This document shows positions 5,377 to 60,740 of a stretch of 64,000 nt of DNA, one piece after another. Location of the stretch: NCBI GenBank assembly GCA_018371855.1, contig JAHAKD010000007.1:27820-91819 (forward strand). The letters are read 5' to 3'. The notes beneath the pieces are model-generated. The model was not told where the DNA came from. It did not search any database and saw only the letters and a program-made list of their open reading frames with translations. This DNA comes from Clostridium sp. Lineage in GTDB: Bacteria > Bacillota > Clostridia > TANB77 > CAG-508. A program made the position numbers and the translations under genes. Position 1 is the stretch's first letter. Every line of letters starts with the position of its first letter.

Positions 5377-6855
5377 TTATAATATTATACAAATTAATCC
5401 ACCACTACCTTCATTTACAATTCGCTCTAGTGTTTCTTGTAATTTTATTTGTGCATCCTCCGGCATATGAGCTAACTTACTTTGTAACCCTTCATTAACA
5501 AGTTCATGTAGACTCTTACCAAAGATATTAGATTCCCAAATTTTCTTAGGGTCGTTTTCAAATTCAGATAGTAAGTAATTTACTAATTCTTCAGATTGTT
5601 TTTCAGAACCAACTATTGGAGATACCTCTGTTTCTATATCGGCTCTTATCATATGTATAGAAGGAGCTTTAGCTTTTAGTTTTACTCCAAATCTAGAGCC
5701 TTGTTTAACCATTTCTGGTTCATCCAATATTAATTCATCAATCGAAGGTGTAACAATTCCATAGCCTTTTGCTTTAACTTCTTCTAAGGCAAAAGATATT
5801 TTATCATATTCTTTCTTTACTTCTGAAAATTCAGCCATTGTTTTAAATAAATCACCATCATTTGAGATTGAAACACCAGAGATTTCTGTTAGTACACTAT
5901 AGAATAGAGTTTCTTTAAGCACAATAGATATATAGACACTTCCAGTTCCAAGTTCAATTTTATTTACACATGCTTGTTGTATAACTTCAGAAGATAATAA
6001 ATTTTGAATGCAGTTGTCAATTTGTTTTAGAATTTTAACTTTTTCAAATGCAGTTTTTAGATCATTTAGTAATGTGCTTTTTAAAGGATGGCTTTCATCT
6101 AGAATATCTATCCACTTCGGAAAACTAATATTAATTTGATTAATAGGGAATTCATATAAAACCTTAGAGAATATATTATTTATATCATCAAGAGTTAATT
6201 CGGAGCAATTAATACAAATTACGGTTGTTTCATACTTTACTTCTAAACTTCTGGCTAATTCCTTTGTGTATTCAGAATTAGGATTTTCAGAATTTAATAC
6301 GATGACAAATGGTTTATTTAAAGATTTTAATTCATTTACAACACGTTCTTCTGCATTTACATAATCTTCTCTAGGAATATCCGTAAAACTACCATCTGTA
6401 GTCATTACAATACCTATTGTAGAATGTTCTTCTATTACTTTTTTTGTTCCTATTTCTGCAGCTTGTTCGAAAGGCATTTCTTCGTCAGACCAAGGCGTTT
6501 TTACCATTCTAGGCATATCATCTTCTAAATACCCTATTGCATTATTAACTAAATAACCAACACAATCTACCAATCTAGTTCTTAATTTAATGTTATCTCC
6601 AATAGTTATTTCGACAGCTTCATTAGGAACAAATTTAGGTTCTGTTGTCATAATTGTTCTTCCTGAGGCGCTTTGTGGTAGTTCATCTGTAGCACGTTCT
6701 TTTTTATACTCATTTTCAATATTAGGAATAACTAATAAATCCATAAAATTTTTTATAAAAGTGGACTTACCAGTTCTAACAGGTCCAACAACACCAACAT
6801 AGATATCGCCATCTGTACGTTTTGCAATATCTTCGTATACATTAATATTTTCCAT
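5377..6855 (-). CDS. spoIVA: Stage IV sporulation protein A (coat-assembly ATPase)
   Basis: The product is 492 aa and begins MENINVYEDIAKRTDGDIYVGVVGPVRTGKSTFIK (Walker A), with the same length and N-terminus as SpoIVA. Confidence 0.92.
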   Translation of the reverse strand: MENINVYEDIAKRTDGDIYVGVVGPVRTGKSTFIKNFMDLLVIPNIENEYKKERATDELPQSASGRTIMTTEPKFVPNEAVEITIGDNIKLRTRLVDCVGYLVNNAIGYLEDDMPRMVKTPWSDEEMPFEQAAEIGTKKVIEEHSTIGIVMTTDGSFTDIPREDYVNAEERVVNELKSLNKPFVIVLNSENPNSEYTKELARSLEVKYETTVICINCSELTLDDINNIFSKVLYEFPINQINISFPKWIDILDESHPLKSTLLNDLKTAFEKVKILKQIDNCIQNLLSSEVIQQACVNKIELGTGSVYISIVLKETLFYSVLTEISGVSISNDGDLFKTMAEFSEVKKEYDKISFALEEVKAKGYGIVTPSIDELILDEPEMVKQGSRFGVKLKAKAPSIHMIRADIETEVSPIVGSEKQSEELVNYLLSEFENDPKKIWESNIFGKSLHELVNEGLQSKLAHMPEDAQIKLQETLERIVNEGSGGLICIIL

Positions 6856-9520: not shown

Positions 9521-10207
9521 ATGTTATCAAATTTTTTTAGAGCAATAATCATATACATATTTGTTTTGTTAGTTATGAGATTAATGGGAAAACGAGAAAT
9601 AGGACAACTACAGCCTTTCGAACTTGCTATTTCTATTATGATTGCAGATTTAGCATCTATTCCTATGTCAGATGTTGGAATACCAATAGTAAATGGATTA
9701 ATTCCTATTTTAGGTTTACTTGTTATGCATTTATTAATTTCTGTTCTTAATATAAAAAGTTTAAAGTTTAGAGAGATAATTTGTGGTAAACCATCTATCT
9801 TAATTTATAGAGGAAGAATTGACGAAAAAATATTAAAAAAAGAAAGATTTACAATAAATGAATTAGAAGAAAGACTACGCTCAAATAATATTTTTAATAT
9901 TGGAGATGTAGAGTATGCAATATTAGAGACTAGTGGACAAATAACAGTTATTCCAAAACCAGAAAAAAGAAATGTAGTAGTAAAAGATTTTAACTTAGAA
10001 CCTGAATATGAAGGGATTTCTTATGATTTAGTTATAGATGGTGTAATTATGAAAGAAAATTTAAGAAAATTAGGAAAAGATGAAAAATGGTTAGAAAAAC
10101 AAGTTGCTAAATTTAAAATAAAACCTAAAGATGCTTTGGTAGTAACAATAGATGGAGAAGGGCAATTTTTCTGCCAAGCAAAAGAAAGGAAAAACAAAAA
10201 TGTATAA
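9521..10207 (+). CDS. DUF421 (YetF-like) membrane protein
   Basis: The N-terminus (…LLVMRLMGKREIGQLQPFELAISIMIADLAS) matches the DUF421 signature. Confidence 0.7.
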   Translation: MLSNFFRAIIIYIFVLLVMRLMGKREIGQLQPFELAISIMIADLASIPMSDVGIPIVNGLIPILGLLVMHLLISVLNIKSLKFREIICGKPSILIYRGRIDEKILKKERFTINELEERLRSNNIFNIGDVEYAILETSGQITVIPKPEKRNVVVKDFNLEPEYEGISYDLVIDGVIMKENLRKLGKDEKWLEKQVAKFKIKPKDALVVTIDGEGQFFCQAKERKNKNV

Positions 10208-10589
10208 AGAAATTATTGTGTGCATTTTAGTAGTTATTTTAATACTTAGTATGGATTTACTAAGTAATAATTATACTAAAAAAGTTTTTTTTAGTATAAA
10301 TGATAGTTTAGGAAATTTAAGAAACGAAATGCTTAAAGAAAATAAAAATGACAATAAAATAAATGATGATATAAAAAAAGTTGAACAAGAATGGAATGCA
10401 AATTTAAATTTGTTATCTTGTTATATAGAACATAACGAACTAGAAAAAGTAGCAAGACAATTAATATTAATTAAAGGAAATATAGACGTAGGAGATTATA
10501 ATCAAGCTGTACCACAACTTGATGACTGTGTGTATGTTATAAATCATATAAAAGACAAAGAAAGTTTATTAATAAGGAATTTGTTTTAA
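10200..10589 (+). CDS. DUF4363-like small membrane protein
   Basis: MYKEIIVCILVVILILSMDLLSNNYTKK…. It overlaps the DUF421 stop by 8 nt, and DUF421–DUF4363 is a conserved gene pair in Clostridia. Confidence 0.55.
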   Translation: MYKEIIVCILVVILILSMDLLSNNYTKKVFFSINDSLGNLRNEMLKENKNDNKINDDIKKVEQEWNANLNLLSCYIEHNELEKVARQLILIKGNIDVGDYNQAVPQLDDCVYVINHIKDKESLLIRNLF

Positions 10590-10652
10590 AAGCTTGCGGT
10601 AGGATTAAACATTAATCTTAGTTAATTTAAAACCATATAAAATTCAAATAAA

Positions 10653-10698
10653 AAGATAGAAAATTAAGATAAAAGCTTAAATTTTCTATCTTTTTTAC
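10653..10698 (+). terminator. Rho-independent terminator
   Basis: AAAAAGATAGAAAATT…AATTTTCTATCTTTTTT. Confidence 0.6.
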
Positions 10699-14879: not shown

Positions 14880-15263
14880 ATGGAAGAAGAAGAAAAATTA
14901 GTGTGTGCAGAAAAATGTCCACATTTAAATAAAATAAATAATGTTAAATCATTAGAAGCGAAGGCAGACCAATATCAAAAATTATCTAATATGTTTAAAC
15001 TATTTTCAGATGAAACTAGATTAAAAATAATTTGTAGCTTATTAAAAGAAGAACTATGTGTGTGTGATTTATGCGAATTATTAGGATTAAATCAATCACA
15101 AGTTTCTCATCAGTTACAACTTTTAAGAAATAGTAAATTAGTAAAATTTAGAAGAGAAGGAAAACAAATCTTTTACAGCTTAGATGATGAGCACGTAGAA
15201 CTTATTATACAAATGGCATTAGATCATATTTTAGAGGAGGAAGAAAAGTATGACATGTTGTAG
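14880..15263 (+). CDS. ArsR/SmtB-family metal-sensing transcriptional repressor (CadC-like)
   Basis: …LKEELCVCDLCELLGLNQSQVSHQLQLLRNSKLV: a wHTH with a CVC metal site, and an N-terminal Cys pair. Confidence 0.8.
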   Translation: MEEEEKLVCAEKCPHLNKINNVKSLEAKADQYQKLSNMFKLFSDETRLKIICSLLKEELCVCDLCELLGLNQSQVSHQLQLLRNSKLVKFRREGKQIFYSLDDEHVELIIQMALDHILEEEEKYDML

Positions 15264-17124
15264 TCATAGTCATGAAGAATGTGAAGTAAAAGAAAAAAAT
15301 AAAAGCAAAATAGTTTTGTATATACTTTCATTAGTTTTATTTGGAATTGGATTTATTCCGGCTTTAGCAGAATATAAAATTTGGATATATTTAGTATCAG
15401 TATTACTTGCAGGATATGATTTATTAATAGAAGGAATAAAAAACTTATTTAAGTTTAATTTCGAAGAAACTACATTAATGACAATAGCAATAATTGGAGC
15501 ATTTATAAAAGGTGACTATCCAGAGAGCTGTTTAGTTGTGTTATTGTTTAAATTAGGAGAATTTCTAGAAGAACTTGCAGAAGAAAAATCTAATAAAAAT
15601 ATAGAAGACATTACTAAAATTAAAGCCAATAATGCTAATTTAGTTGATGGAGATAATGTAAATGCTGTTAAAGTAGAGGATGTAAAAATAGGTGACATAT
15701 TACTTGTAAAACCTGGTGAAAAGATTCCTGTTGATGGAATAGTTACATCTGGTAAATCTCAAATAGATACATCACCAATTACAGGCGAGAGCAAACCTGT
15801 TAAAGTGGAAAAAAATAATGAAGTTATTTCTGGAAGTATAAATTTAAATAGTGCAATTTATATTAAAGCGGAAAAAGAATATAAAGATTCTATGGCTTCA
15901 CAAATAATTGATTTAGTATATGAAGCAACAAATAATAAAGGAAAGACAGAAAAATTTATTACTAAATTTTCTAAAATATATACACCTGTTGTAATAGTAA
16001 TTGCAATTTTGCTAGTAATAATTCCATTAATATTTGGTGCAGATATGGATAAGTGGATAGATATAGCATTGTTCTTCTTAGTGGCATCTTGTCCATGTAG
16101 TTTAGTAATTTCTATACCATTATCATTCTTCTCTTGTATAGGCGCGATTTCTAAAAAAGGAATGATTATAAAAGGAACAAAACATATAGAGAATTTATCA
16201 AAAACAGATATAATTGCATTTGACAAAACAGGAACATTAACTACAGGAAAAATGGTTATAGATAAATTAGAAGCAACAAAAATTTCAGAAAATGAAATGT
16301 TAGAATATATTTATAGTATAGAAAATTTATCTAATCACCCTATTGCAACAGCAGTAGCAAACTATAAAAAAGACATAGAGAAATTAGAAGTAAAAGATTA
16401 TATAGAATATTCTGGACATGGTTTATATGGAATTATAAACGGAAAAGAAATTTTATTTGGAAATAAGAAATTAATGGAAAAATACAATGTAGATACAGCA
16501 GAATATGTTGATAATACTATTACACTTGCAGTAGATAAACAAATTGTAGGATATATAACATTAAAAGAAGAGTTAAGAGAAAATGTAGAAAATATATTAG
16601 ATAATTTAAAGGAAGCAGGAGTAAAAGATGCTGCAATATTAACAGGTGATAATAAAAAGGCTGCTAAGAATATTGCAGATAAATTAAAAATATCAAAAGT
16701 ATATGCAGAATTATTACCACAAGAAAAATTAAACAAAGTAAAAGAACTACAAGCTGATAATAATAAAGTGACATTTTTAGGTGATGGAATTAATGATAGT
16801 CCAGTAATTGCAACAGCAGATTTTGGAATGAGTATGGGAACAGGCTCAGAAATTGCAAATAACACAGCTGATGGAATTTTAATATCTAACGAAATTTCAA
16901 CCTTACCAACAATAATAAGAATTGCTAAAAAAACAATGAGAATAGTTAAATTTAATATAGCTTTTTCATTACTTGCAAAACTTGTTGTGTTAATTGTAGG
17001 CTTATTTGGAACAGCACCAATATGGCTTGCAGTATTAGCTGATACAGGTGTTACTTTACTTACAGTATTAAATGCATTAAGAATATTAAGAACTTTAGGG
17101 ACGGGGGTTAAGACTCATAAGTAA
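15250..17124 (+). CDS. Heavy-metal (Cd/Zn-type) P1B-type ATPase lacking an N-terminal HMA domain
   Basis: CPC transmembrane motif (VASCPCSLV), DKTGTLT phosphorylation site, GDGINDSP hinge, and an N-terminal MTCCSHSHEECEVKE Cys/His cluster. Confidence 0.85.
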   Translation: MTCCSHSHEECEVKEKNKSKIVLYILSLVLFGIGFIPALAEYKIWIYLVSVLLAGYDLLIEGIKNLFKFNFEETTLMTIAIIGAFIKGDYPESCLVVLLFKLGEFLEELAEEKSNKNIEDITKIKANNANLVDGDNVNAVKVEDVKIGDILLVKPGEKIPVDGIVTSGKSQIDTSPITGESKPVKVEKNNEVISGSINLNSAIYIKAEKEYKDSMASQIIDLVYEATNNKGKTEKFITKFSKIYTPVVIVIAILLVIIPLIFGADMDKWIDIALFFLVASCPCSLVISIPLSFFSCIGAISKKGMIIKGTKHIENLSKTDIIAFDKTGTLTTGKMVIDKLEATKISENEMLEYIYSIENLSNHPIATAVANYKKDIEKLEVKDYIEYSGHGLYGIINGKEILFGNKKLMEKYNVDTAEYVDNTITLAVDKQIVGYITLKEELRENVENILDNLKEAGVKDAAILTGDNKKAAKNIADKLKISKVYAELLPQEKLNKVKELQADNNKVTFLGDGINDSPVIATADFGMSMGTGSEIANNTADGILISNEISTLPTIIRIAKKTMRIVKFNIAFSLLAKLVVLIVGLFGTAPIWLAVLADTGVTLLTVLNALRILRTLGTGVKTHK

Positions 17125-24307: not shown

Positions 24308-24349
24308 AAGCAAAAAACAGGCAGACACTGTAAAAAGTGTCTGCCTGTT
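24308..24349 (-). terminator. Rho-independent terminator of the U32 peptidase gene (the minus-strand T-run follows the hairpin)
   Basis: ACAGGCAGACACTGtaaaaaGTGTCTGCCTGT flanked by an A-run on the plus strand (a T-run on the minus strand). Confidence 0.65.
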
Positions 24350-24383
24350 GGCATTCCATTATATGCTGAATATATTTTTAATA

Positions 24384-24431
24384 GGGAAAAAAGGAATGTC
24401 CCCAAATCCTGAGGGAATGTCCAAAAAATCC
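24384..24431 (-). other. 3'UTR hairpin motif, copy 1 (tandem half-copies), directly abutting the U32 stop codon
   Basis: Minus-strand reading: GGGATTTTTTGGACATTCCctcaGGATTTGGGGACATTCCTTTTTTCCC; see the matching copies at 32491 and 60626. Confidence 0.5.
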
Positions 24432-26852
24432 CTATATTTCTCTGTTTAAATTACCATTTGTATACATATTTCCCTCTAATCTATTTCCTTTTGAAACAGT
24501 AGTTATAACTTTATTAATTTCATCAATATTTTCATCTAAAATATTGATTCTGCATGATTTAACATTAAAATCTTTTGTTTCAATCGATGTAATTCTGCTA
24601 TTAAAAACAGTTGTAATAGTTTGAATATTATCAGGAATAAATCTGAATTCAAAACCTAATCTATCAATCAAAGCATATTTTTTAGAAGTATCAAAACATT
24701 TTTTATCACAATTTGGATAGCATTTATTTGATTTGCCTAAAAAACAATAATTTGTGTTCATTACTGGAAGTTTTCCATATGCAAATACTTCTAAATTATT
24801 GCCATAAGAATCACAAAGTGATGAAATATTAGTTTTATTTAATTCTGGTGAAAATTCTATTAAATCAATGTCATAATCAAGTAACTCTTTTATAGTATTA
24901 TCATTAAAAACATTTAAAGTATAATTTGCTATTAATTTTAATTTGTTGTCATATTGCTCTTTAATAAATTTTAGATATTCAACATTTCCTATATTAGAGA
25001 AAACAATGCCTTTAACATTAAAGTTTTCTAAAGTAGATCTTAAATAATTTGCTAATAAATTTTTATAATTACCACGAATAATAATTGGCATATATACATA
25101 GATATCAGCTTTTTTTGCAATTGTATTAATAATATCAAAATATTTATTATTATAAAAATATTTTAAAGGAATATATGCTTTACTAAAATTAGTAAGCTTA
25201 GCATAATCTAATGTTTCATCTAAAATGTTAAAGCAAACAGATATATCTTTTTGTGTAACTTGTGGTGCAATACTGTTAGTTGGAGAATATTTTATATCTA
25301 AATTTCTTTTGAATTTTTGCATAGCACATGTTTCTATATTAGCTAAAGCTTGTCTTCTAAGCTCATTTATAATGCTTATATTAGGTATAAATAAATTCGA
25401 ATCTAACTGAACATTAATATCATTAAATTCAAATTGTGTATTAGAAGTCTTTTTTAATTGAGTAATAATTCTTTCTATATCTAATGGTTTATTAATTGCT
25501 TTGACCGGAGAGTTTTCAGACTTTTCAGTTACTGTAATATTATTATATATACTATCATTATCATTAATAGTAGAAACTTTTAATACAATTGGTTCTCCTT
25601 CTTTTAGTGTAATATTTGCATTTAAATAAGTCTTAATATTTTCGGTATTTGTAAAAGAAGAATTTGCAGTACTAAATAAATTTTTACTTGTTAATTTATA
25701 TATTTTAGCACCAATAGATATTTTACCTTTCATCCTACCAATAGTAACTTTATCACCTTTATTTGCAGAAGATAAATTTAATCCATCTTTCATTAATTCA
25801 GAAACGGTATATTTTTTATGATCATTATCAAATGAAATAATATCTCCAATCGAAAGTTCGTCTTTTAACGTAAAAGAAACATATCCTTTATGTGCAGAAT
25901 AATTAGAAATATTACCTATATATATTCCAGCATTATTAGGTTTTTCTGGATAAACAAAGTCTGTATTTGGAGAATTTTTAAGATGACCAGATGAAAAACC
26001 TCCTCTATTAAAAACTTGAAGTAAATCATCTATATCTTTTTTTTCTATTTCATAATTTTCTTTATTCATGCATTTATCTATATATTTACGATAAATTCTT
26101 GTAACTGTTGCTACATATTCTGGTTTTTTCATTCGACCCTCTATTTTAAAACTAGTAACACCGGCATCAATTAATTTAGGTATAAATTCTAACCCACATA
26201 AATCTTTAGGACTCATTAAATATTTAAAAGAAGAATCTATATCTTTTACTTTATATGGTAACCTACATGGTTGAGCACATTTGCCTCTGTTACCAGAACG
26301 ACCACCTATCATGCTAGACATTAAACATTGACCTGAATAAGATAGGCACAAAGCACCATGAATAAATACTTCTGTTTCTATATTTGTTTTATGGCAAATA
26401 TCATATATTTCAGAAATAGGTAATTCTCTAGAAAGAACAGCTCTTTTAAAGCCAAATTTTTCTAAAGTTTGCACACATTCTAAATTATGAATAGTCATTT
26501 GAGTACTACCATGGACATCAAGACTAGGAAAATTTTTGATTAGATAACGTGCAAGTCCAAAATCTTGTACGATAATTGCATCTATCCCACAATTATAAGC
26601 ATGTTCTGCAAGTTTTATAGCATTTTCAAATTCATTATCTGTAATTAGTGTATTTAATGTTAAATGTGTTTTTACATTTCTTAATTTTGCATAGTTAATT
26701 GCCATTTCTAAAGCTTCATTGTCGAAATTATTAGCAAAAGCACGAGCACTAAAAGAGCTTGCACCAAAATATACGCTGTCTGCACCATTTTGGACAGCAG
26801 CTTTTAGACATTCAAAATCTCCAGCAGGAGCAAGTAGTTCCAAAAAAATCAC
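24432..26852 (-). CDS. U32-family peptidase (collagenase-like PrtC/YegQ family) with a long C-terminal extension
   Basis: MIFLELLAPAGDFECLKAAVQNGADSVYFG… and …GALCLSYSGQCLMSSMIGGRSGNRGKCAQPCR are U32 signatures; 806 aa. Confidence 0.85.
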   Translation of the reverse strand: MIFLELLAPAGDFECLKAAVQNGADSVYFGASSFSARAFANNFDNEALEMAINYAKLRNVKTHLTLNTLITDNEFENAIKLAEHAYNCGIDAIIVQDFGLARYLIKNFPSLDVHGSTQMTIHNLECVQTLEKFGFKRAVLSRELPISEIYDICHKTNIETEVFIHGALCLSYSGQCLMSSMIGGRSGNRGKCAQPCRLPYKVKDIDSSFKYLMSPKDLCGLEFIPKLIDAGVTSFKIEGRMKKPEYVATVTRIYRKYIDKCMNKENYEIEKKDIDDLLQVFNRGGFSSGHLKNSPNTDFVYPEKPNNAGIYIGNISNYSAHKGYVSFTLKDELSIGDIISFDNDHKKYTVSELMKDGLNLSSANKGDKVTIGRMKGKISIGAKIYKLTSKNLFSTANSSFTNTENIKTYLNANITLKEGEPIVLKVSTINDNDSIYNNITVTEKSENSPVKAINKPLDIERIITQLKKTSNTQFEFNDINVQLDSNLFIPNISIINELRRQALANIETCAMQKFKRNLDIKYSPTNSIAPQVTQKDISVCFNILDETLDYAKLTNFSKAYIPLKYFYNNKYFDIINTIAKKADIYVYMPIIIRGNYKNLLANYLRSTLENFNVKGIVFSNIGNVEYLKFIKEQYDNKLKLIANYTLNVFNDNTIKELLDYDIDLIEFSPELNKTNISSLCDSYGNNLEVFAYGKLPVMNTNYCFLGKSNKCYPNCDKKCFDTSKKYALIDRLGFEFRFIPDNIQTITTVFNSRITSIETKDFNVKSCRINILDENIDEINKVITTVSKGNRLEGNMYTNGNLNREI

Positions 26853-30670: not shown

Positions 30671-32485
30671 TTGATGGAAAATTCAAATAAGAACAAAGAT
30701 AAGAACAATGATTCAAAAAAGTTTTGGATTTCTTCTATAATATTATTAGTAATTATTATTGCTTTAGCTATAGTATCTTATTTGATTTATAGCAATAATG
30801 GTGAAGAAGAAAATGAATTGGTATTACCATATACAGAATTAATTCAAAATATAAATAATAATACAGTAGAAAAAATAGAATTAACAACTGGAAGTACTAC
30901 AGTAAAAGTAAAGTTAAAAGATGAGGAAAAAGAAAAAACTACAATAGTACCAAGTTTACAAGCTTTTACAGAATATATTCAAACAAAAGTAGAGCAAGGA
31001 AATGAAATGGAAGTAGTACAGAAAAAGCCAAATATATTACTTACAATAGGGGATACTATTTTTACTATTCTACCAACATTATTAATGATTGCTTTAATTA
31101 TAATGTTATTTAAAATGCAAGGTTTAGGCGATAAAGGTAAAGTATATGATAGCGAAGAAAAAGATACAAATGTAAGATTTGCAGATGTAGCTGGACTAGA
31201 TGAAGAAAAAGCAGAAATGGTTGAAATAGTTAATTTCTTAAAGAAGCCAGAAGAATTTTATAAAATGGGAGCTAAAGTTCCAAGAGGAGTTTTACTTTGT
31301 GGTAAACCGGGTACTGGTAAAACATTAATTGCAAAAGCTATTGCAGGAGAAGCAAATGTACCATTTATATCTATGAGTGGTTCAGAATTCATAGAAATGT
31401 TTGCAGGACTTGGTGCTTCGAGAGTTAGAAAATTATTTGAAAAAGCAAGAAGAATGGCACCATGTATTGTTTTTATTGATGAAATAGATGCAATTGGAGC
31501 TAGAAGAACAAATGCAAGTGGTGCAGAATCAGAAAATAACCAAACATTAAATCAATTACTTGTAGAAATGGATGGTTTTGATTCAGATGAAACAATTATT
31601 GTATTAGCAGCTACTAATAGACCAGAGATGTTAGATAAAGCATTATTAAGACCTGGTAGATTTGACAGACAAATAATAATAAATTCACCTGACCAAAAAG
31701 GTAGAGAAGAAATTCTTAAAATTCATAGTAAAGATAAAAAGATTGATGATAATATCAATTTTAAAGATATTGCAGAAGATACAGCTGGTTTTACTGGAGC
31801 AGAGCTTGCTAATATTTTAAATGAAGCAGCAATTATTGCGACAATAAATAAACATGATTTTATAACTAAAGAAGATATAGATGAGGCAATTAAGAAAGTT
31901 ACAGTAGGTCTTGAAAAACATAGTAGAGTTATATCAGAAAAAGATAAAAAATTAACAGCATATCATGAAGCTGGACATGCAGTAGTTAGTAGATATTTAG
32001 AAACACAAAATGATATAAAAGAAGTTTCTATTATACCAAGAGGTGTTGCTGGTGGATATACAATGTATAAGAGTAACGAAGATAAATACTATATTTCAAA
32101 AACTGAAATGGAAGAAAAATTAGTTGCACTATTAGGCGGTAGAGCTGCAGAAAAACTAGTTTTAGATGATATATCAACAGGAGCAAGTAATGATTTAGAA
32201 GTTGCTACAAATATCGCGAGAGATATGATTACTGTTTATGGAATGAGTGATACAATTGGACCAATATCTTTAAAAGACTCAGAAAATCAAAATCAAATGA
32301 TTTTATATGGTGAAAAGATGCAAGATGCAATTGGTGCAGAAATAAAAATATTAATAGATACAGCATATAGAAATGCTCAAAAACTATTAATAGAGCACAG
32401 GGATAAATTAGATGCAGTTGCAAATGTATTACTAGAAAAAGAAAAAATAACAGAAAAAGAATTTTATAAAATATTTAACGATTAA
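30671..32485 (+). CDS. ftsH: ATP-dependent zinc metalloprotease FtsH
   Basis: AAA+ Walker A GKPGTGKTLIAKAIAGEA, second region of homology, and HEAGHAVV zinc site. Confidence 0.95.
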   Translation: MMENSNKNKDKNNDSKKFWISSIILLVIIIALAIVSYLIYSNNGEEENELVLPYTELIQNINNNTVEKIELTTGSTTVKVKLKDEEKEKTTIVPSLQAFTEYIQTKVEQGNEMEVVQKKPNILLTIGDTIFTILPTLLMIALIIMLFKMQGLGDKGKVYDSEEKDTNVRFADVAGLDEEKAEMVEIVNFLKKPEEFYKMGAKVPRGVLLCGKPGTGKTLIAKAIAGEANVPFISMSGSEFIEMFAGLGASRVRKLFEKARRMAPCIVFIDEIDAIGARRTNASGAESENNQTLNQLLVEMDGFDSDETIIVLAATNRPEMLDKALLRPGRFDRQIIINSPDQKGREEILKIHSKDKKIDDNINFKDIAEDTAGFTGAELANILNEAAIIATINKHDFITKEDIDEAIKKVTVGLEKHSRVISEKDKKLTAYHEAGHAVVSRYLETQNDIKEVSIIPRGVAGGYTMYKSNEDKYYISKTEMEEKLVALLGGRAAEKLVLDDISTGASNDLEVATNIARDMITVYGMSDTIGPISLKDSENQNQMILYGEKMQDAIGAEIKILIDTAYRNAQKLLIEHRDKLDAVANVLLEKEKITEKEFYKIFND

Positions 32486-32490
32486 ATTAT

Positions 32491-32517
32491 AGGAATTTAG
32501 AGACGTTCCTTAAAATC
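32491..32517 (+). other. 3'UTR hairpin motif, copy 3 (partial), 6 nt after the ftsH stop
   Basis: AGGAATTTAGAGACGTTCCTTAAAATC shares GACGTTCCTTAAA(A)TC with the copy at 60626. Confidence 0.45.
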
Positions 32518-32532
32518 TATATTTATAAAAGT

Positions 32533-32566
32533 AAGAGCCTTAGGTTTTAAACTAAGGCTCTTTATT
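32533..32566. terminator. Bidirectional terminator shared by ftsH (+) and rluA-family (-)
   Basis: AAGAGCCTTAGgttttaaaCTAAGGCTCTTT. Confidence 0.65.
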
Positions 32567-35378: not shown

Positions 35379-35509
35379 TTATAATCAATATTACGTGCAA
35401 TAAATGTAATTATAATAGTGAATTTTAAATTTCAGTTATAATTTAATTGTAAAAAACTAGAAAATATAGTATAATGTAGCAGAATTCACAATGATTGGAG
35501 ATGGGCAAT

Positions 35510-36526
35510 ATGCAAAATAAAAAGAGAAGTTTAACAGGAGATAGACCAACAGGAAAATTACATATAGGGCATTACTTTGGTTCTTTACAAAATAGAGTAA
35601 AAATGCAAGAAGATGATAGTATAGAAAGATTTGTTATGATTGCAGACGTACAAGCTTTAACAGATAATTTTAATAATCCACAAAAAGTAAGAGATAATGT
35701 TTATCAAGTTCTATTAGACTATCTGTCAGTAGGTATTGATCCAGAAAAAACAACAATCTTTTTACAATCAATGATACCAGAGCTTGCAGAATTAACAGTT
35801 TATTATTCAAATTTAGTAACAATTGCAAGATTGGAAAGAAATCCAACAGTAAAAACTGAAATTGCCCAAAAGAAAGATGTTTTTGGAGAAAGTGTAACAT
35901 ATGGATTTTTGGGATATCCTGTAAGTCAAGCAGCAGATATAACAGCATTTGAAGGAGAACTAGTTCCAGTTGGAGAAGACCAATTACCTTTAATAGAGCA
36001 ATGTAGAGAAATCGTAAGGAAATTTAATAGTATATATGGCGAGACATTAAAAGAACCAAAAGCAGTATTAAGTTCTAATAAAAGAATTAAGGGTCTAGAT
36101 GGCAACGAAAAAATGGGAAAATCACTAGGAAATGCAATATATCTTTCAGACTCAGAGGAAGAAATAACTAAAAAAGTTATGGGAGCAGTAACAGACCCAA
36201 GTAGAATAAAAAAGGATGATTTAGGAAATCCCGATGTATGTATGGTTGCATATTACCATGAATTATTTACTAATCCAGAAGATGTTAAAGTTGTATGCCA
36301 AGAATGCAGGGAAGGAAAAAGAGGTTGTGTTGCTTGTAAGAAACAATTAGCAACCAATATTATAGAAAAATTAAGACCAATAAGAGAAAAAAGAAAATAT
36401 TATGAAGAGAGACCAGAGTTACTAGATGAGATATTAGTAAATGGAACTAAAAAAGCACAAGAGATAGCAAGAGAAACAATGAGAAAAGTAAAAGCAAATA
36501 TGAAGCTTAATTATTTTGATAAATAA
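35510..36526 (+). CDS. trpS: Tryptophan--tRNA ligase
   Basis: LTGDRPTGKLHIGHYFG (HIGH) and KMGKSLGN (KMSKS) motifs. The ATG at 35510 is preceded by GGAGATGGG; the track start at 35495 is a TTG. Confidence 0.9.
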   Translation: MQNKKRSLTGDRPTGKLHIGHYFGSLQNRVKMQEDDSIERFVMIADVQALTDNFNNPQKVRDNVYQVLLDYLSVGIDPEKTTIFLQSMIPELAELTVYYSNLVTIARLERNPTVKTEIAQKKDVFGESVTYGFLGYPVSQAADITAFEGELVPVGEDQLPLIEQCREIVRKFNSIYGETLKEPKAVLSSNKRIKGLDGNEKMGKSLGNAIYLSDSEEEITKKVMGAVTDPSRIKKDDLGNPDVCMVAYYHELFTNPEDVKVVCQECREGKRGCVACKKQLATNIIEKLRPIREKRKYYEERPELLDEILVNGTKKAQEIARETMRKVKANMKLNYFDK

Positions 36527-59454: not shown

Positions 59455-60618
59455 ATGAGTATTGAAAAATTTGTATTAAACGAAACATCTTATTTCGGAT
59501 TTGGAGCAAGGGAGGTTTTACCAGAAGAAATAAAAAATAGAGGATATAAGAAAGTATTAGTTGTTACAGATAAATCTTTATTCGAAATAGGTTTAAGTAA
59601 AAAAGTAACAGACAAATTAGATGAAGCAGGAATAGAATATACAGTATTTAGTGATGTAAAACCTAATCCAACAGTAACAAATGTAAAAGATGGTTTAAGA
59701 ATTTGTAGAGAATTTGGAGCAGATGTAATTGTTGCTGTAGGTGGAGGTTCTAGTATAGATACTGCTAAAGGAATTTCTATAGTTATGACAAACCCAGATA
59801 GAGAAGATATTGTTTCTTTAAATGGTCCATCAAACACTGTAAATAAAGGAATGCCATTAATAGCACTTCCAACAACACATGGTACAGCAGCAGAAGTTAC
59901 TATAAATTATGTAATAACAGATGAAGAAAGAGAAGTAAAAATGGTATGTGTTGATCCACATGATATACCTTTAGTTGCAATTGTAGATACAGAACTAATG
60001 TCTACATTACCAAAATCAATAGCAGCTTCAACAGGTATGGATGCATTAACACATGCGATTGAAGGATATATAACAAAAGCTCATAATACAATGTCAGATA
60101 TGTTTCATATGAGAGCAATAGAATTAATATTCGAAAATTTACCAGCTGCAGTAAATGAGAAAAATCAAGATGCAATAGATAAAATGGGATTAGCACAATA
60201 TATTGCAGGAATGGGATTTTCAAATGTAGGTCTTGGAATAGTTCATTCTATGGCACATCAATTAGGAGCTGTTTATGATACTCCACATGGAATGGCAAAT
60301 GCAATTTTATTACCAACAGTAATGAGATTTAATGGACAAAATCCAGCAACAGCACAAAGATTTAGAGAAATATTAGTAAGAATTGGAAGACCAGATGCTG
60401 AACATTTAAATGACCAAGATGTTATAAATACATTTGTATGGAAAATATCAGAATTATCTAAAGCAGTTGGAATTACACAAACAATAAAAGATGTAGGAGC
60501 AAAAGAAGAAGATTTCGGAATGCTTGCCGATAAAGCAATGGAAGACCCATGTAAACCAGGAAATCCAAGAGAAGTATCAAGAGAAGACTTTATAGAATTA
60601 TATAGACAAGCTATGTAA
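59455..60618 (+). CDS. Iron-containing (group III) alcohol dehydrogenase (FucO/DhaT-like)
   Basis: VAVGGGSSIDTAKGI NAD-binding motif and the His-rich iron site …HSMAHQLG…. AAGGAGG lies before the ATG at 59455. Confidence 0.88.
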   Translation: MSIEKFVLNETSYFGFGAREVLPEEIKNRGYKKVLVVTDKSLFEIGLSKKVTDKLDEAGIEYTVFSDVKPNPTVTNVKDGLRICREFGADVIVAVGGGSSIDTAKGISIVMTNPDREDIVSLNGPSNTVNKGMPLIALPTTHGTAAEVTINYVITDEEREVKMVCVDPHDIPLVAIVDTELMSTLPKSIAASTGMDALTHAIEGYITKAHNTMSDMFHMRAIELIFENLPAAVNEKNQDAIDKMGLAQYIAGMGFSNVGLGIVHSMAHQLGAVYDTPHGMANAILLPTVMRFNGQNPATAQRFREILVRIGRPDAEHLNDQDVINTFVWKISELSKAVGITQTIKDVGAKEEDFGMLADKAMEDPCKPGNPREVSREDFIELYRQAM

Positions 60619-60625
60619 TAAATAA

Positions 60626-60672
60626 GGATTTGGATCTTTCTGGGGATTTTTTTGGGACGTTCCTTAAATCCC
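60626..60672 (+). other. 3'UTR hairpin motif, copy 2 (full), 8 nt after the adh stop and before the terminator
   Basis: GGATTTGGATCTTTCTGGGGATTTTTTTGGGACGTTCCTTAAATCCC: stem GGGGATTT/AAATCCC with a conserved loop GGGACGTTCC. Confidence 0.5.
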
Positions 60673-60707
60673 GATCTAAACGAAAATAGTTTTGCAATGT
60701 ATAAAAC

Positions 60708-60740
60708 AAGGGCTACTGAATTTATATTCAGTAGCCCTTA
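60708..60740 (+). terminator. Rho-independent terminator
   Basis: AAGGGCTACTGAATttatATTCAGTAGCCCTTATT. Confidence 0.65.

Follow-up and report, generated by a model that had tools for sequence, protein, structure and literature searches.

What does it mean when three genes of unrelated function end in the same short motif? The window, by which we mean the whole 64,000-nucleotide stretch of clostridial DNA analysed here (27% GC), carries such a motif at three sites, 24384-24432 on the minus strand, 32484-32525 on the plus strand and 60626-60680 on the plus strand. An earlier note, made from the sequence alone, had read the motif as a 3'-UTR cis-element or a small mobile insertion rather than a terminator. 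All three copies are confirmed from the sequence, and each sits, as the note had described, close 3' of a stop codon and in the sense orientation of the upstream gene, with a separate intrinsic terminator further downstream; the spacers that hold them all lie between convergent genes. By Pfam, the three upstream genes encode a Peptidase_U32 protein, an AAA + Peptidase_M41 + FtsH_ext protein and an Fe-ADH, respectively. We find that all three are degenerate copies from a family of small palindromic repeats, interspersed and specific to one lineage; the repeat copies and their neighboring terminators in the window are the following:

17093..17114, plus strand: tentative repeat relic CTTTAGGGACGGGGGTTAAGAC, below the covariance-model threshold, in the last codons of a P-type ATPase ORF (15250-17124)
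24316..24349, minus strand: conventional intrinsic terminator of the U32 gene, 14-pair stem and T run, outside the repeat
24384..24434, minus strand: two-unit repeat array 3' of the U32 peptidase gene, seen in the sequence and as a covariance-model match
24432-24414, minus strand: unit a of the U32 site, GGGATTTTTTGGACATTCC, overlapping the stop codon TAG at 24434-24432
24409-24393, minus strand: unit b of the U32 site, GGATTTGGGGACATTCC, separated from unit a by CTCA
24392-24384, minus strand: variant 3' arm of the U32 site, TTTTTTCCC, directly after unit b
32484..32525 (element ~32489-32520), plus strand: ftsH site, a degenerate single copy, ATAGGAATTTAGAGACGTTCCTTAAAATCTAT; the ftsH stop codon is at 32483-32485
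32533..32562, both strands scored: conventional terminator-like hairpin of 11 pairs with T run, in the spacer between ftsH and a convergent pseudouridine synthase gene
60626..60640, plus strand: degenerate half unit of the Fe-ADH site, GGATTTGGATCTTTC; the Fe-ADH stop codon is at 60616-60618
60643..60672, plus strand: full unit of the Fe-ADH site, GGGGATTTTTTTGGGACGTTCCTTAAATCCC, the best-preserved copy of the window, without a U tract
60708..60739, plus strand: conventional intrinsic terminator of the Fe-ADH gene, 14 pairs and T run

None of the three window copies is followed by a U tract, and none folds better than its shuffles (z = -0.4 to -1.6); for example, the ftsH copy reaches a weak -5.4 kcal/mol (z = -0.4), and the whole Fe-ADH region folds at -15.4 kcal/mol with z = -0.5. 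The ordinary terminators follow after gaps of ~34 nt (U32), ~12 nt (ftsH) and ~35 nt (Fe-ADH), such that the distance of 20-40 nt given in the earlier note holds for the U32 and Fe-ADH genes but not for ftsH. With their U tracts absent, their folding at the level of shuffles and real terminators downstream of them, the window copies are probably relics or, at most, auxiliary 3'-UTR hairpins. To describe the motif as something other than a terminator is thus correct for these three copies; the description does not extend to the canonical member of the family, to which we turn below.

Could the resemblance among the three sites be a coincidence of A/T-rich DNA? The shuffle control speaks against such a coincidence: the core GGAYRTTCC occurs five times in the window where 0.66 occurrences are expected, a count reached by 0 of 100 shuffles, and GACRTTCC occurs six times against an expectation of 0.93. 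The GGAYRTTCC matches at 6374 and 38484 are unrelated and lie within ORFs, and an extra core match at 2434, also unrelated, has neither a flanking arm nor a covariance-model match. Additionally, a covariance model (R1) built on 51 copies, all of them from other genomes, recovers the three window sites with 36.4 bits (60635-60680, Fe-ADH; E = 3e-11), 26.1 bits (ftsH; E = 3e-7) and 17.2 bits (24376-24418, U32; E = 7e-4). Run with filters off across the 64 kb, the model returns nothing further that is convincing. A weak match of 13.2 bits at 36206-36240 on the minus strand, CATCGGGATTTCCTAAATCATCCTTTTTT, lies antisense within an ORF (35495-36526); it has the arm sequences with the central part missing and is probably due to chance. 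An Rfam scan of the window at gathering score finds two tRNAs and no repeat family, and when a canonical copy and the U32 site are searched against Rfam permissively, the only matches are generic hairpins, far below threshold.

The relatives of the motif are concentrated in one group of organisms. We scanned one genome per species (185,579 species) with the strict pattern GGATTTN{0,6}GGACRTTCCN{0,5}AAATCC and matched at least 112 stretches; among the matches listed, 107 of the 112 come from a single clade of uncultured gut Clostridia, and the five stretches from outside it look like chance, about 20 chance matches being expected by our own estimate, which assumes uniform base composition. The clade comprises, among the matches listed, ~30 MAG species labelled uncultured Clostridium or Clostridia, with members such as Clostridium sp. 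CAG:354, UMGS1570, UMGS1423 and HGM13682 as well as Hadza, rabbit ('Lapin') and MGBC-labelled MAGs; UMGS1570 alone holds at least 20 blocks in the strict scan. Relatives of the U32 gene with 92-95% protein identity are found on human-gut metagenome contigs. The 107 clade blocks listed amount to 763 kb, 87% of which is coding by a crude ORF call, and contain 174 GGAC[AG]TTCC cores. Just one of 150 sites in the clade blocks among the matches listed lies well inside an ORF, and the rare coding matches to the 9-mer core are chance-like. Across ~30 species, again among the matches listed, GGGACGTTCC is almost invariant.

A full-text literature search with the core 10-mer on either strand retrieved just unrelated primers and sites, and the family appears to be undescribed, yet of a known kind. 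In viral collections the loose pattern gave 73 single matches, at chance level, and the strict pattern gave one true copy along with four chance matches. The true copy (L023 796-821, on IMG/VR contig 3300045988_175401) has flanks that closely match those of host contig L152, and for this reason the contig is likely host or prophage-adjacent DNA. We rejected a phage link for the repeat, as the sole true viral copy represents the same locus as L152.

What, then, does an intact member look like? The canonical unit reads (N)3-GGGATTT-GGGGA-CGT-TCCTT-AAATCCC-(N')3 and is followed by a T-rich tail; in the spacers of related contigs, the intact form is tAGGGATTT-GGGGACGTTCC-TT-AAATCCCTa, ~33 nt long without the tail. 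As RNA it folds into a continuous 16-bp hairpin with a 3-nt CGU loop at -20.3 kcal/mol (z = -5.4; 0 of 200 shuffles are as good). The earlier note had drawn a 7-bp GGGAUUU/AAAUCCC stem that presents GGACGUUCC as a conserved loop, and this drawing has to be abandoned: GGGGA pairs with UCCUU through G.U pairs, so the supposed loop is the upper stem. The antisense strand of the same unit reaches -15.0 kcal/mol, a weaker fold because the G.U pairs turn into A.C. Among the 51 aligned sequences, pair 17-27 is G.U in 50, and pair 16-28 is GU, AU or GC in 37. The three outermost pairs are variable and often complementary (ATA/TAT, ATC/GAT, ACA/TGT, AAA/TTT), fully so in 26 of 121 copies. Covariation support for the helix is weak and limited to these three outer pairs, with 7 and 10 of 500 shuffles reaching the observed values for a 10-pair stem and 4 and 3 of 500 when the whole helix of 15 pairs is counted; the invariance of the inner helix follows from the search pattern, which demanded those letters.

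The 3' flank is T-rich, with the consensus CCC TATTTT or GATTTT, and the 5' side carries no mirrored A run. At 75 of 132 sites (~55%), at least five T occur in the 8 nt directly after the hairpin. With its hairpin and T-rich tail, the intact unit has the form of an intrinsic terminator, and it forms the stable hairpin expected of one, as the window copies do not. The conservation of the stem sequence, on the other hand, exceeds what a terminator needs.

Beyond the single unit, the family has a modular architecture. In some copies, tandem arrays of ~20-nt half units precede the complete unit, and a variant subtype with the 3' arm found at the U32 site recurs elsewhere. In several species, inverted pairs are joined to a second module, GGGAWWAGGGGACASTCCTT, around a short centre or a bidirectional terminator. 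We also observed spacers that are filled entirely by two facing arms, each a hairpin joined to this second module, with a short centre between them, resembling MITEs of 150-200 bp (L139 80-220, L190 830-965, L120 5860-6010, L150 1770-1920, L222 495-640 and L219 3605-3755); in L129 and L198, the centre between the facing arms is a bidirectional terminator.

The position of the repeat relative to genes is far from uniform. The 150 sites among the matches listed divide into one well inside an ORF, 17 at block edges and 132 that can be classified, and 90 of these 132 are preceded by a co-oriented gene, with a median gap of 12 nt between stop codon and element. The earlier note's proposal that the motif goes with stop codons, in the sense orientation, therefore holds statistically across the family; its stronger claim, that the element is always sense to the upstream gene, is true of the window and fails elsewhere, since 42 of the 132 sites lie in other contexts. 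In other words, the association is a strong tendency and not a rule. In 23 of the 90 sites downstream of a co-oriented gene, the element itself supplies the stop codon, either the TAG of tAGGGATTT or of ATTTAGGG or the TAA of CCTTAAATCC; Spo0A in L125 is an example.

Spacers between convergent genes hold 28% of the sites and make up 14% of spacer length, and for divergent spacers the two values are 7% and 16.5%. In convergent spacers, 33 of 37 sites are nearer the stop codon of the gene to which they are sense (Wilcoxon p = 5e-5). Spacers between co-directional genes contain 53 sense and 33 antisense copies, and many of the antisense copies end 5-15 nt 5' of a ribosome-binding site. We rejected a model in which orientation follows the replication strand, as for IS200/IS605, on the basis of the convergent spacers, where 16 sites are on the leading and 21 on the lagging strand.

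Orthologous loci in related contigs show turnover of the repeat. At the 3' end of the U32 gene, orthologues in 24 related contigs have the element at the equivalent place in one, two or three units, such that the repeat at this locus behaves as a variable-number tandem repeat among closely related strains. The number of ~20-nt units is one in L082, L083 and L097, three in L075 and L095, and two in most others. The degenerate ftsH copy of the window has canonical counterparts in several relatives, which retain the ordinary terminator alongside, and a counterpart of the TTTTTTCCC subtype in one; in two relatives the element is missing, and the terminator and downstream gene differ as well. After the Fe-ADH gene, the element is absent from three more distant species.

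Positional equivalence with a conventional terminator is seen behind the DUF4363 gene (10152-10589). In the window, this gene is followed by an ordinary terminator; in CAG:354 (L145), a degenerate unit and a canonical hairpin with T7 replace it in the same spacer; the stop codon that precedes this spacer and the promoter sequence that follows it, CTGTAAAGCTCTTGACA, are both conserved. UMGS1570 (L185) also has the hairpin and T run after the orthologue of this gene, and there only the upstream flank matches the window. The spacers compared are 10590-10690 in the window, 6850-6960 in L145 and 2300-2420 in L185; GGTAGGATTAAACATTAATCTTAG, which is likewise present in the window spacer, may be a relic that has collapsed.

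The repeat may even have been taken up into coding sequence. Where the orthologues of the window's P-type ATPase gene end in L076, L083, L087, L145 and L097, intact or variant elements are present, and we suggest, tentatively, that CTTTAGGGACGGGGGTTAAGAC is a decayed copy that was probably absorbed into the last 12 codons of the window's P-type ATPase ORF. In all five contigs the orthologous gene terminates sooner, at an intact element or shortly ahead of it. Separately, gene order shifts beside the repeat at three loci, the ends of the P-type ATPase, ftsH and U32 genes (L076 ~13400 versus window 17087; L095/L097 versus L083/L087/L091 at ftsH; L082 and L109 at U32), which suggests that the elements sit at, or help to cause, breakpoints of rearrangement, or else breaks in the assembly.

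Taking these observations together, we think it probable that the motif belongs to a REP/SPRITE-like, terminator-like small interspersed repeat of an uncultured, 27% GC clade of gut Clostridia (CAG:354, UMGS1570 and relatives). In this explanation, the sense transcript of an intact unit would form a hairpin of 16 bp, closed by a loop of 3 nt and with U residues behind it, as in an intrinsic terminator, and copies would persist mainly directly behind the stop codons of genes that run in their own direction, where such a hairpin would be harmless or useful: it could bring transcription to a stop or protect the mRNA at its 3' end. Antisense copies, which would lack a U tail in the mRNA, would be tolerated in other spacers. 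Copies grow and shrink by ~20-nt units, decay and are replaced over short evolutionary distances, and in the window copies the U tract is gone and the helix largely eroded, with ordinary terminators 12-35 nt downstream. A terminator or RNA-stabilizing activity of the canonical unit is what its sequence would predict; that transcripts end at the U tract we infer from a single kind of evidence, the positional replacement of a conventional terminator. Several points count against this explanation. A strong T run follows only ~55% of the hairpins, and a third of the sites lack a co-oriented gene upstream. Moreover, terminator-like hairpins are not poorer in separate terminators (7/48 versus 7/42), the complementarity that would be expected being absent, and the canonical copies after ftsH leave the ordinary terminator in place.

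Is the repeat simply a selfish element? It is possible, if on balance unlikely, that it is a non-autonomous REP or MITE with a transposase elsewhere (e.g. an IS200/IS605-type RAYT) and no host function, whose place after genes reflects insertion tolerance only. This reading overlaps with our favored explanation, and several observations speak for it: the copy number is high and, among the matches listed, confined to one clade; orthologous loci differ in the presence and structure of the element; the copies decay in the window's lineage; inverted pairs in other species form composites like the terminal repeats of MITEs; and element termini give TAG stops, as those of GTAG REPs do (PMC3733652). 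The family has the properties of REPs in that it is a short imperfect palindrome with many extragenic copies, both single and clustered, and the earlier note's alternative of a small MITE- or REP-like insertion was essentially right.

Other observations count against this reading. No target-site duplication is visible at the edges of the inverted pairs. A flank-joining search for filled and empty sites gave no clean empty site, only element-bearing orthologues and the one case of replacement. No transposase or RAYT was seen between inverted copies in ~800 kb of sampled loci, where genes were judged from their translations in L125 and elsewhere by their first 60 residues; a RAYT/REPtron arrangement thus found no support there, the genes between inverted copies being spo0A, nuclease-like ORFs and ORFs that, by their N-terminal residues, look like ordinary cellular genes. 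Next to spo0A, L125 4402-5510 holds three overlapping ORFs between two inverted copies, and these look like a frameshifted gene for a DNA/RNA non-specific endonuclease. A universal GTAG or CGTC tag is absent as well, the 5' flanks being ATA, ATC, ACA, AAA, TTC and others, with GTAG in few copies. Finally, the orientation of the repeat tracks the adjacent gene and not the replication strand.

Another reading, to which we give little credence, is the one that the earlier note had placed first, a sequence-specific RNA signal in the 3' UTR, such as a target for an RNA-binding protein or an element that governs stability or processing by RNases. The sense orientation and tight proximity to stop codons are what it would predict, and the conservation of the stem GGGACGTTCC goes far beyond the needs of a generic hairpin. 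At 20 BLAST-verified orthologous pairs, substitutions amount to 2.0% in the element and 12.0% in the remaining spacer, a comparison that favors this reading and is biased by ascertainment, since both partners had to match the motif. Against it, the fold prediction places the supposed recognition loop within a helix, a third of the copies are found in antisense orientation or in 5' regions, the drift of the window copies (loop G to A, arms lost) reveals no constraint, and no candidate protein was identified.

A related and similarly improbable reading is that the hairpin is a signal for a dedicated, clade-specific factor, or that it is copied between gene ends in an unconventional way. The factor might be a termination, RNA-processing or domesticated HUH-type protein, and the route of copying might be gene conversion or hairpin-templated synthesis. 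Either version would explain the near-invariance of 27 nt over ~30 species, the location of the 5' edge at gene boundaries and the swaps with terminators.

We consider it very improbable that the repeat acts at the level of DNA, as an uptake sequence in terminators, the site of a dimeric protein on GGRACGTYCC or a site for site-specific recombination. The core 10-mer is an imperfect DNA palindrome, synteny breaks occur beside elements at three loci, and uptake sequences are known from terminators (Kingsford 2007, via PMC12306157; PMC3049150, discussion). The core is, however, near-absent from coding DNA, unlike uptake sequences; with one of 150 sites in an ORF, the repeat is not of the uptake-sequence type. 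Two conserved G.T positions spoil the DNA palindrome and give a perfect RNA helix on the sense strand, the conserved T tail is one-sided, and a related module has a different half-site spacing, GGACAGTCC. CsrA-type GGA sites were dropped as the GGA motifs are base-paired, integron attC sites for want of a GTTRRRY core and a cassette array, and a tRNA T-arm mimic, CRISPR and type III antitoxin repeats were considered from sequence and likewise dropped.

Our favored explanation, a terminator-like interspersed repeat, adds a recognizable repeat family to a group of human and animal gut Clostridia that is uncultured and poorly known, and it has several practical uses. The repeat can help to annotate gene ends and operon boundaries in MAGs of the clade, it flags assembly and synteny breakpoints, and its variable unit number, for example at the U32 locus, could serve strain typing. 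No new class of mechanism is implied unless a dedicated recognition or copying factor exists.

How does the repeat compare with known systems? It resembles an ordinary intrinsic terminator in its hairpin, which has a T run directly behind it at 75 of 132 sites and at 90 of 132 lies past the stop codon of a gene in sense orientation, and in one orthologous spacer the two are positionally interchangeable. Ordinary terminators have locus-specific sequences, whereas here one near-invariant sequence is found at >100 loci in ~30 species (among the matches listed), a third of its copies in contexts where a terminator would not be expected. MITEs with regulatory side effects are another point of reference, among them the Correia elements of Neisseria and the pneumococcal BOX and RUP elements. 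Like Correia, BOX and RUP, the present repeat is non-coding, interspersed, presumably co-transcribed with its neighbors and hairpin-forming, and in some species of the clade its units form inverted pairs around a centre, as in MITEs; it differs in that no target-site duplication or related insertion sequence was seen in the sampled loci and in that the unit is much smaller in the window's lineage.

The likeness to proteobacterial REPs and BIMEs is closer. Both are short imperfect palindromes in many copies, mostly in spacers downstream of genes, present as singles, dimers and arrays and capable of plausible RNA hairpins; the termini of GTAG- and CGTC-tagged REPs often give the TAG stop of the flanking ORF (Di Nocera et al. 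2013, PMC3733652), a donation that the present repeat shares. The present repeat lacks the GTAG/CGTC tag, has an AT-rich stem and a T tail, came without a RAYT in the DNA sampled and belongs to a Gram-positive-type Clostridia lineage.

The closest analogue is SPRITE, a pneumococcal repeat with an 18-bp RNA duplex and a U-rich tract. It is enriched where genes converge and close to gene 3' ends, no mobilizer is known for it, and it was proposed to have been co-opted as a terminator (PMC3049150). Both are interspersed repeats of Firmicutes with a long duplex (18 bp there and 16 bp here) and a U-rich tract, both are enriched at gene 3' ends and in convergent spacers, and for neither was a target-site duplication, an empty site or a cognate transposase found. 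The present unit is far shorter (~33 nt plus tail) and often follows a variable number of tandem ~20-nt half units. The host clade also differs, and the likeness is one of architecture only, with no sequence kinship expected. After SPRITE, the repeat thus represents a second case in Firmicutes of a stereotyped, terminator-like hairpin that spreads and apparently substitutes for ordinary terminators.
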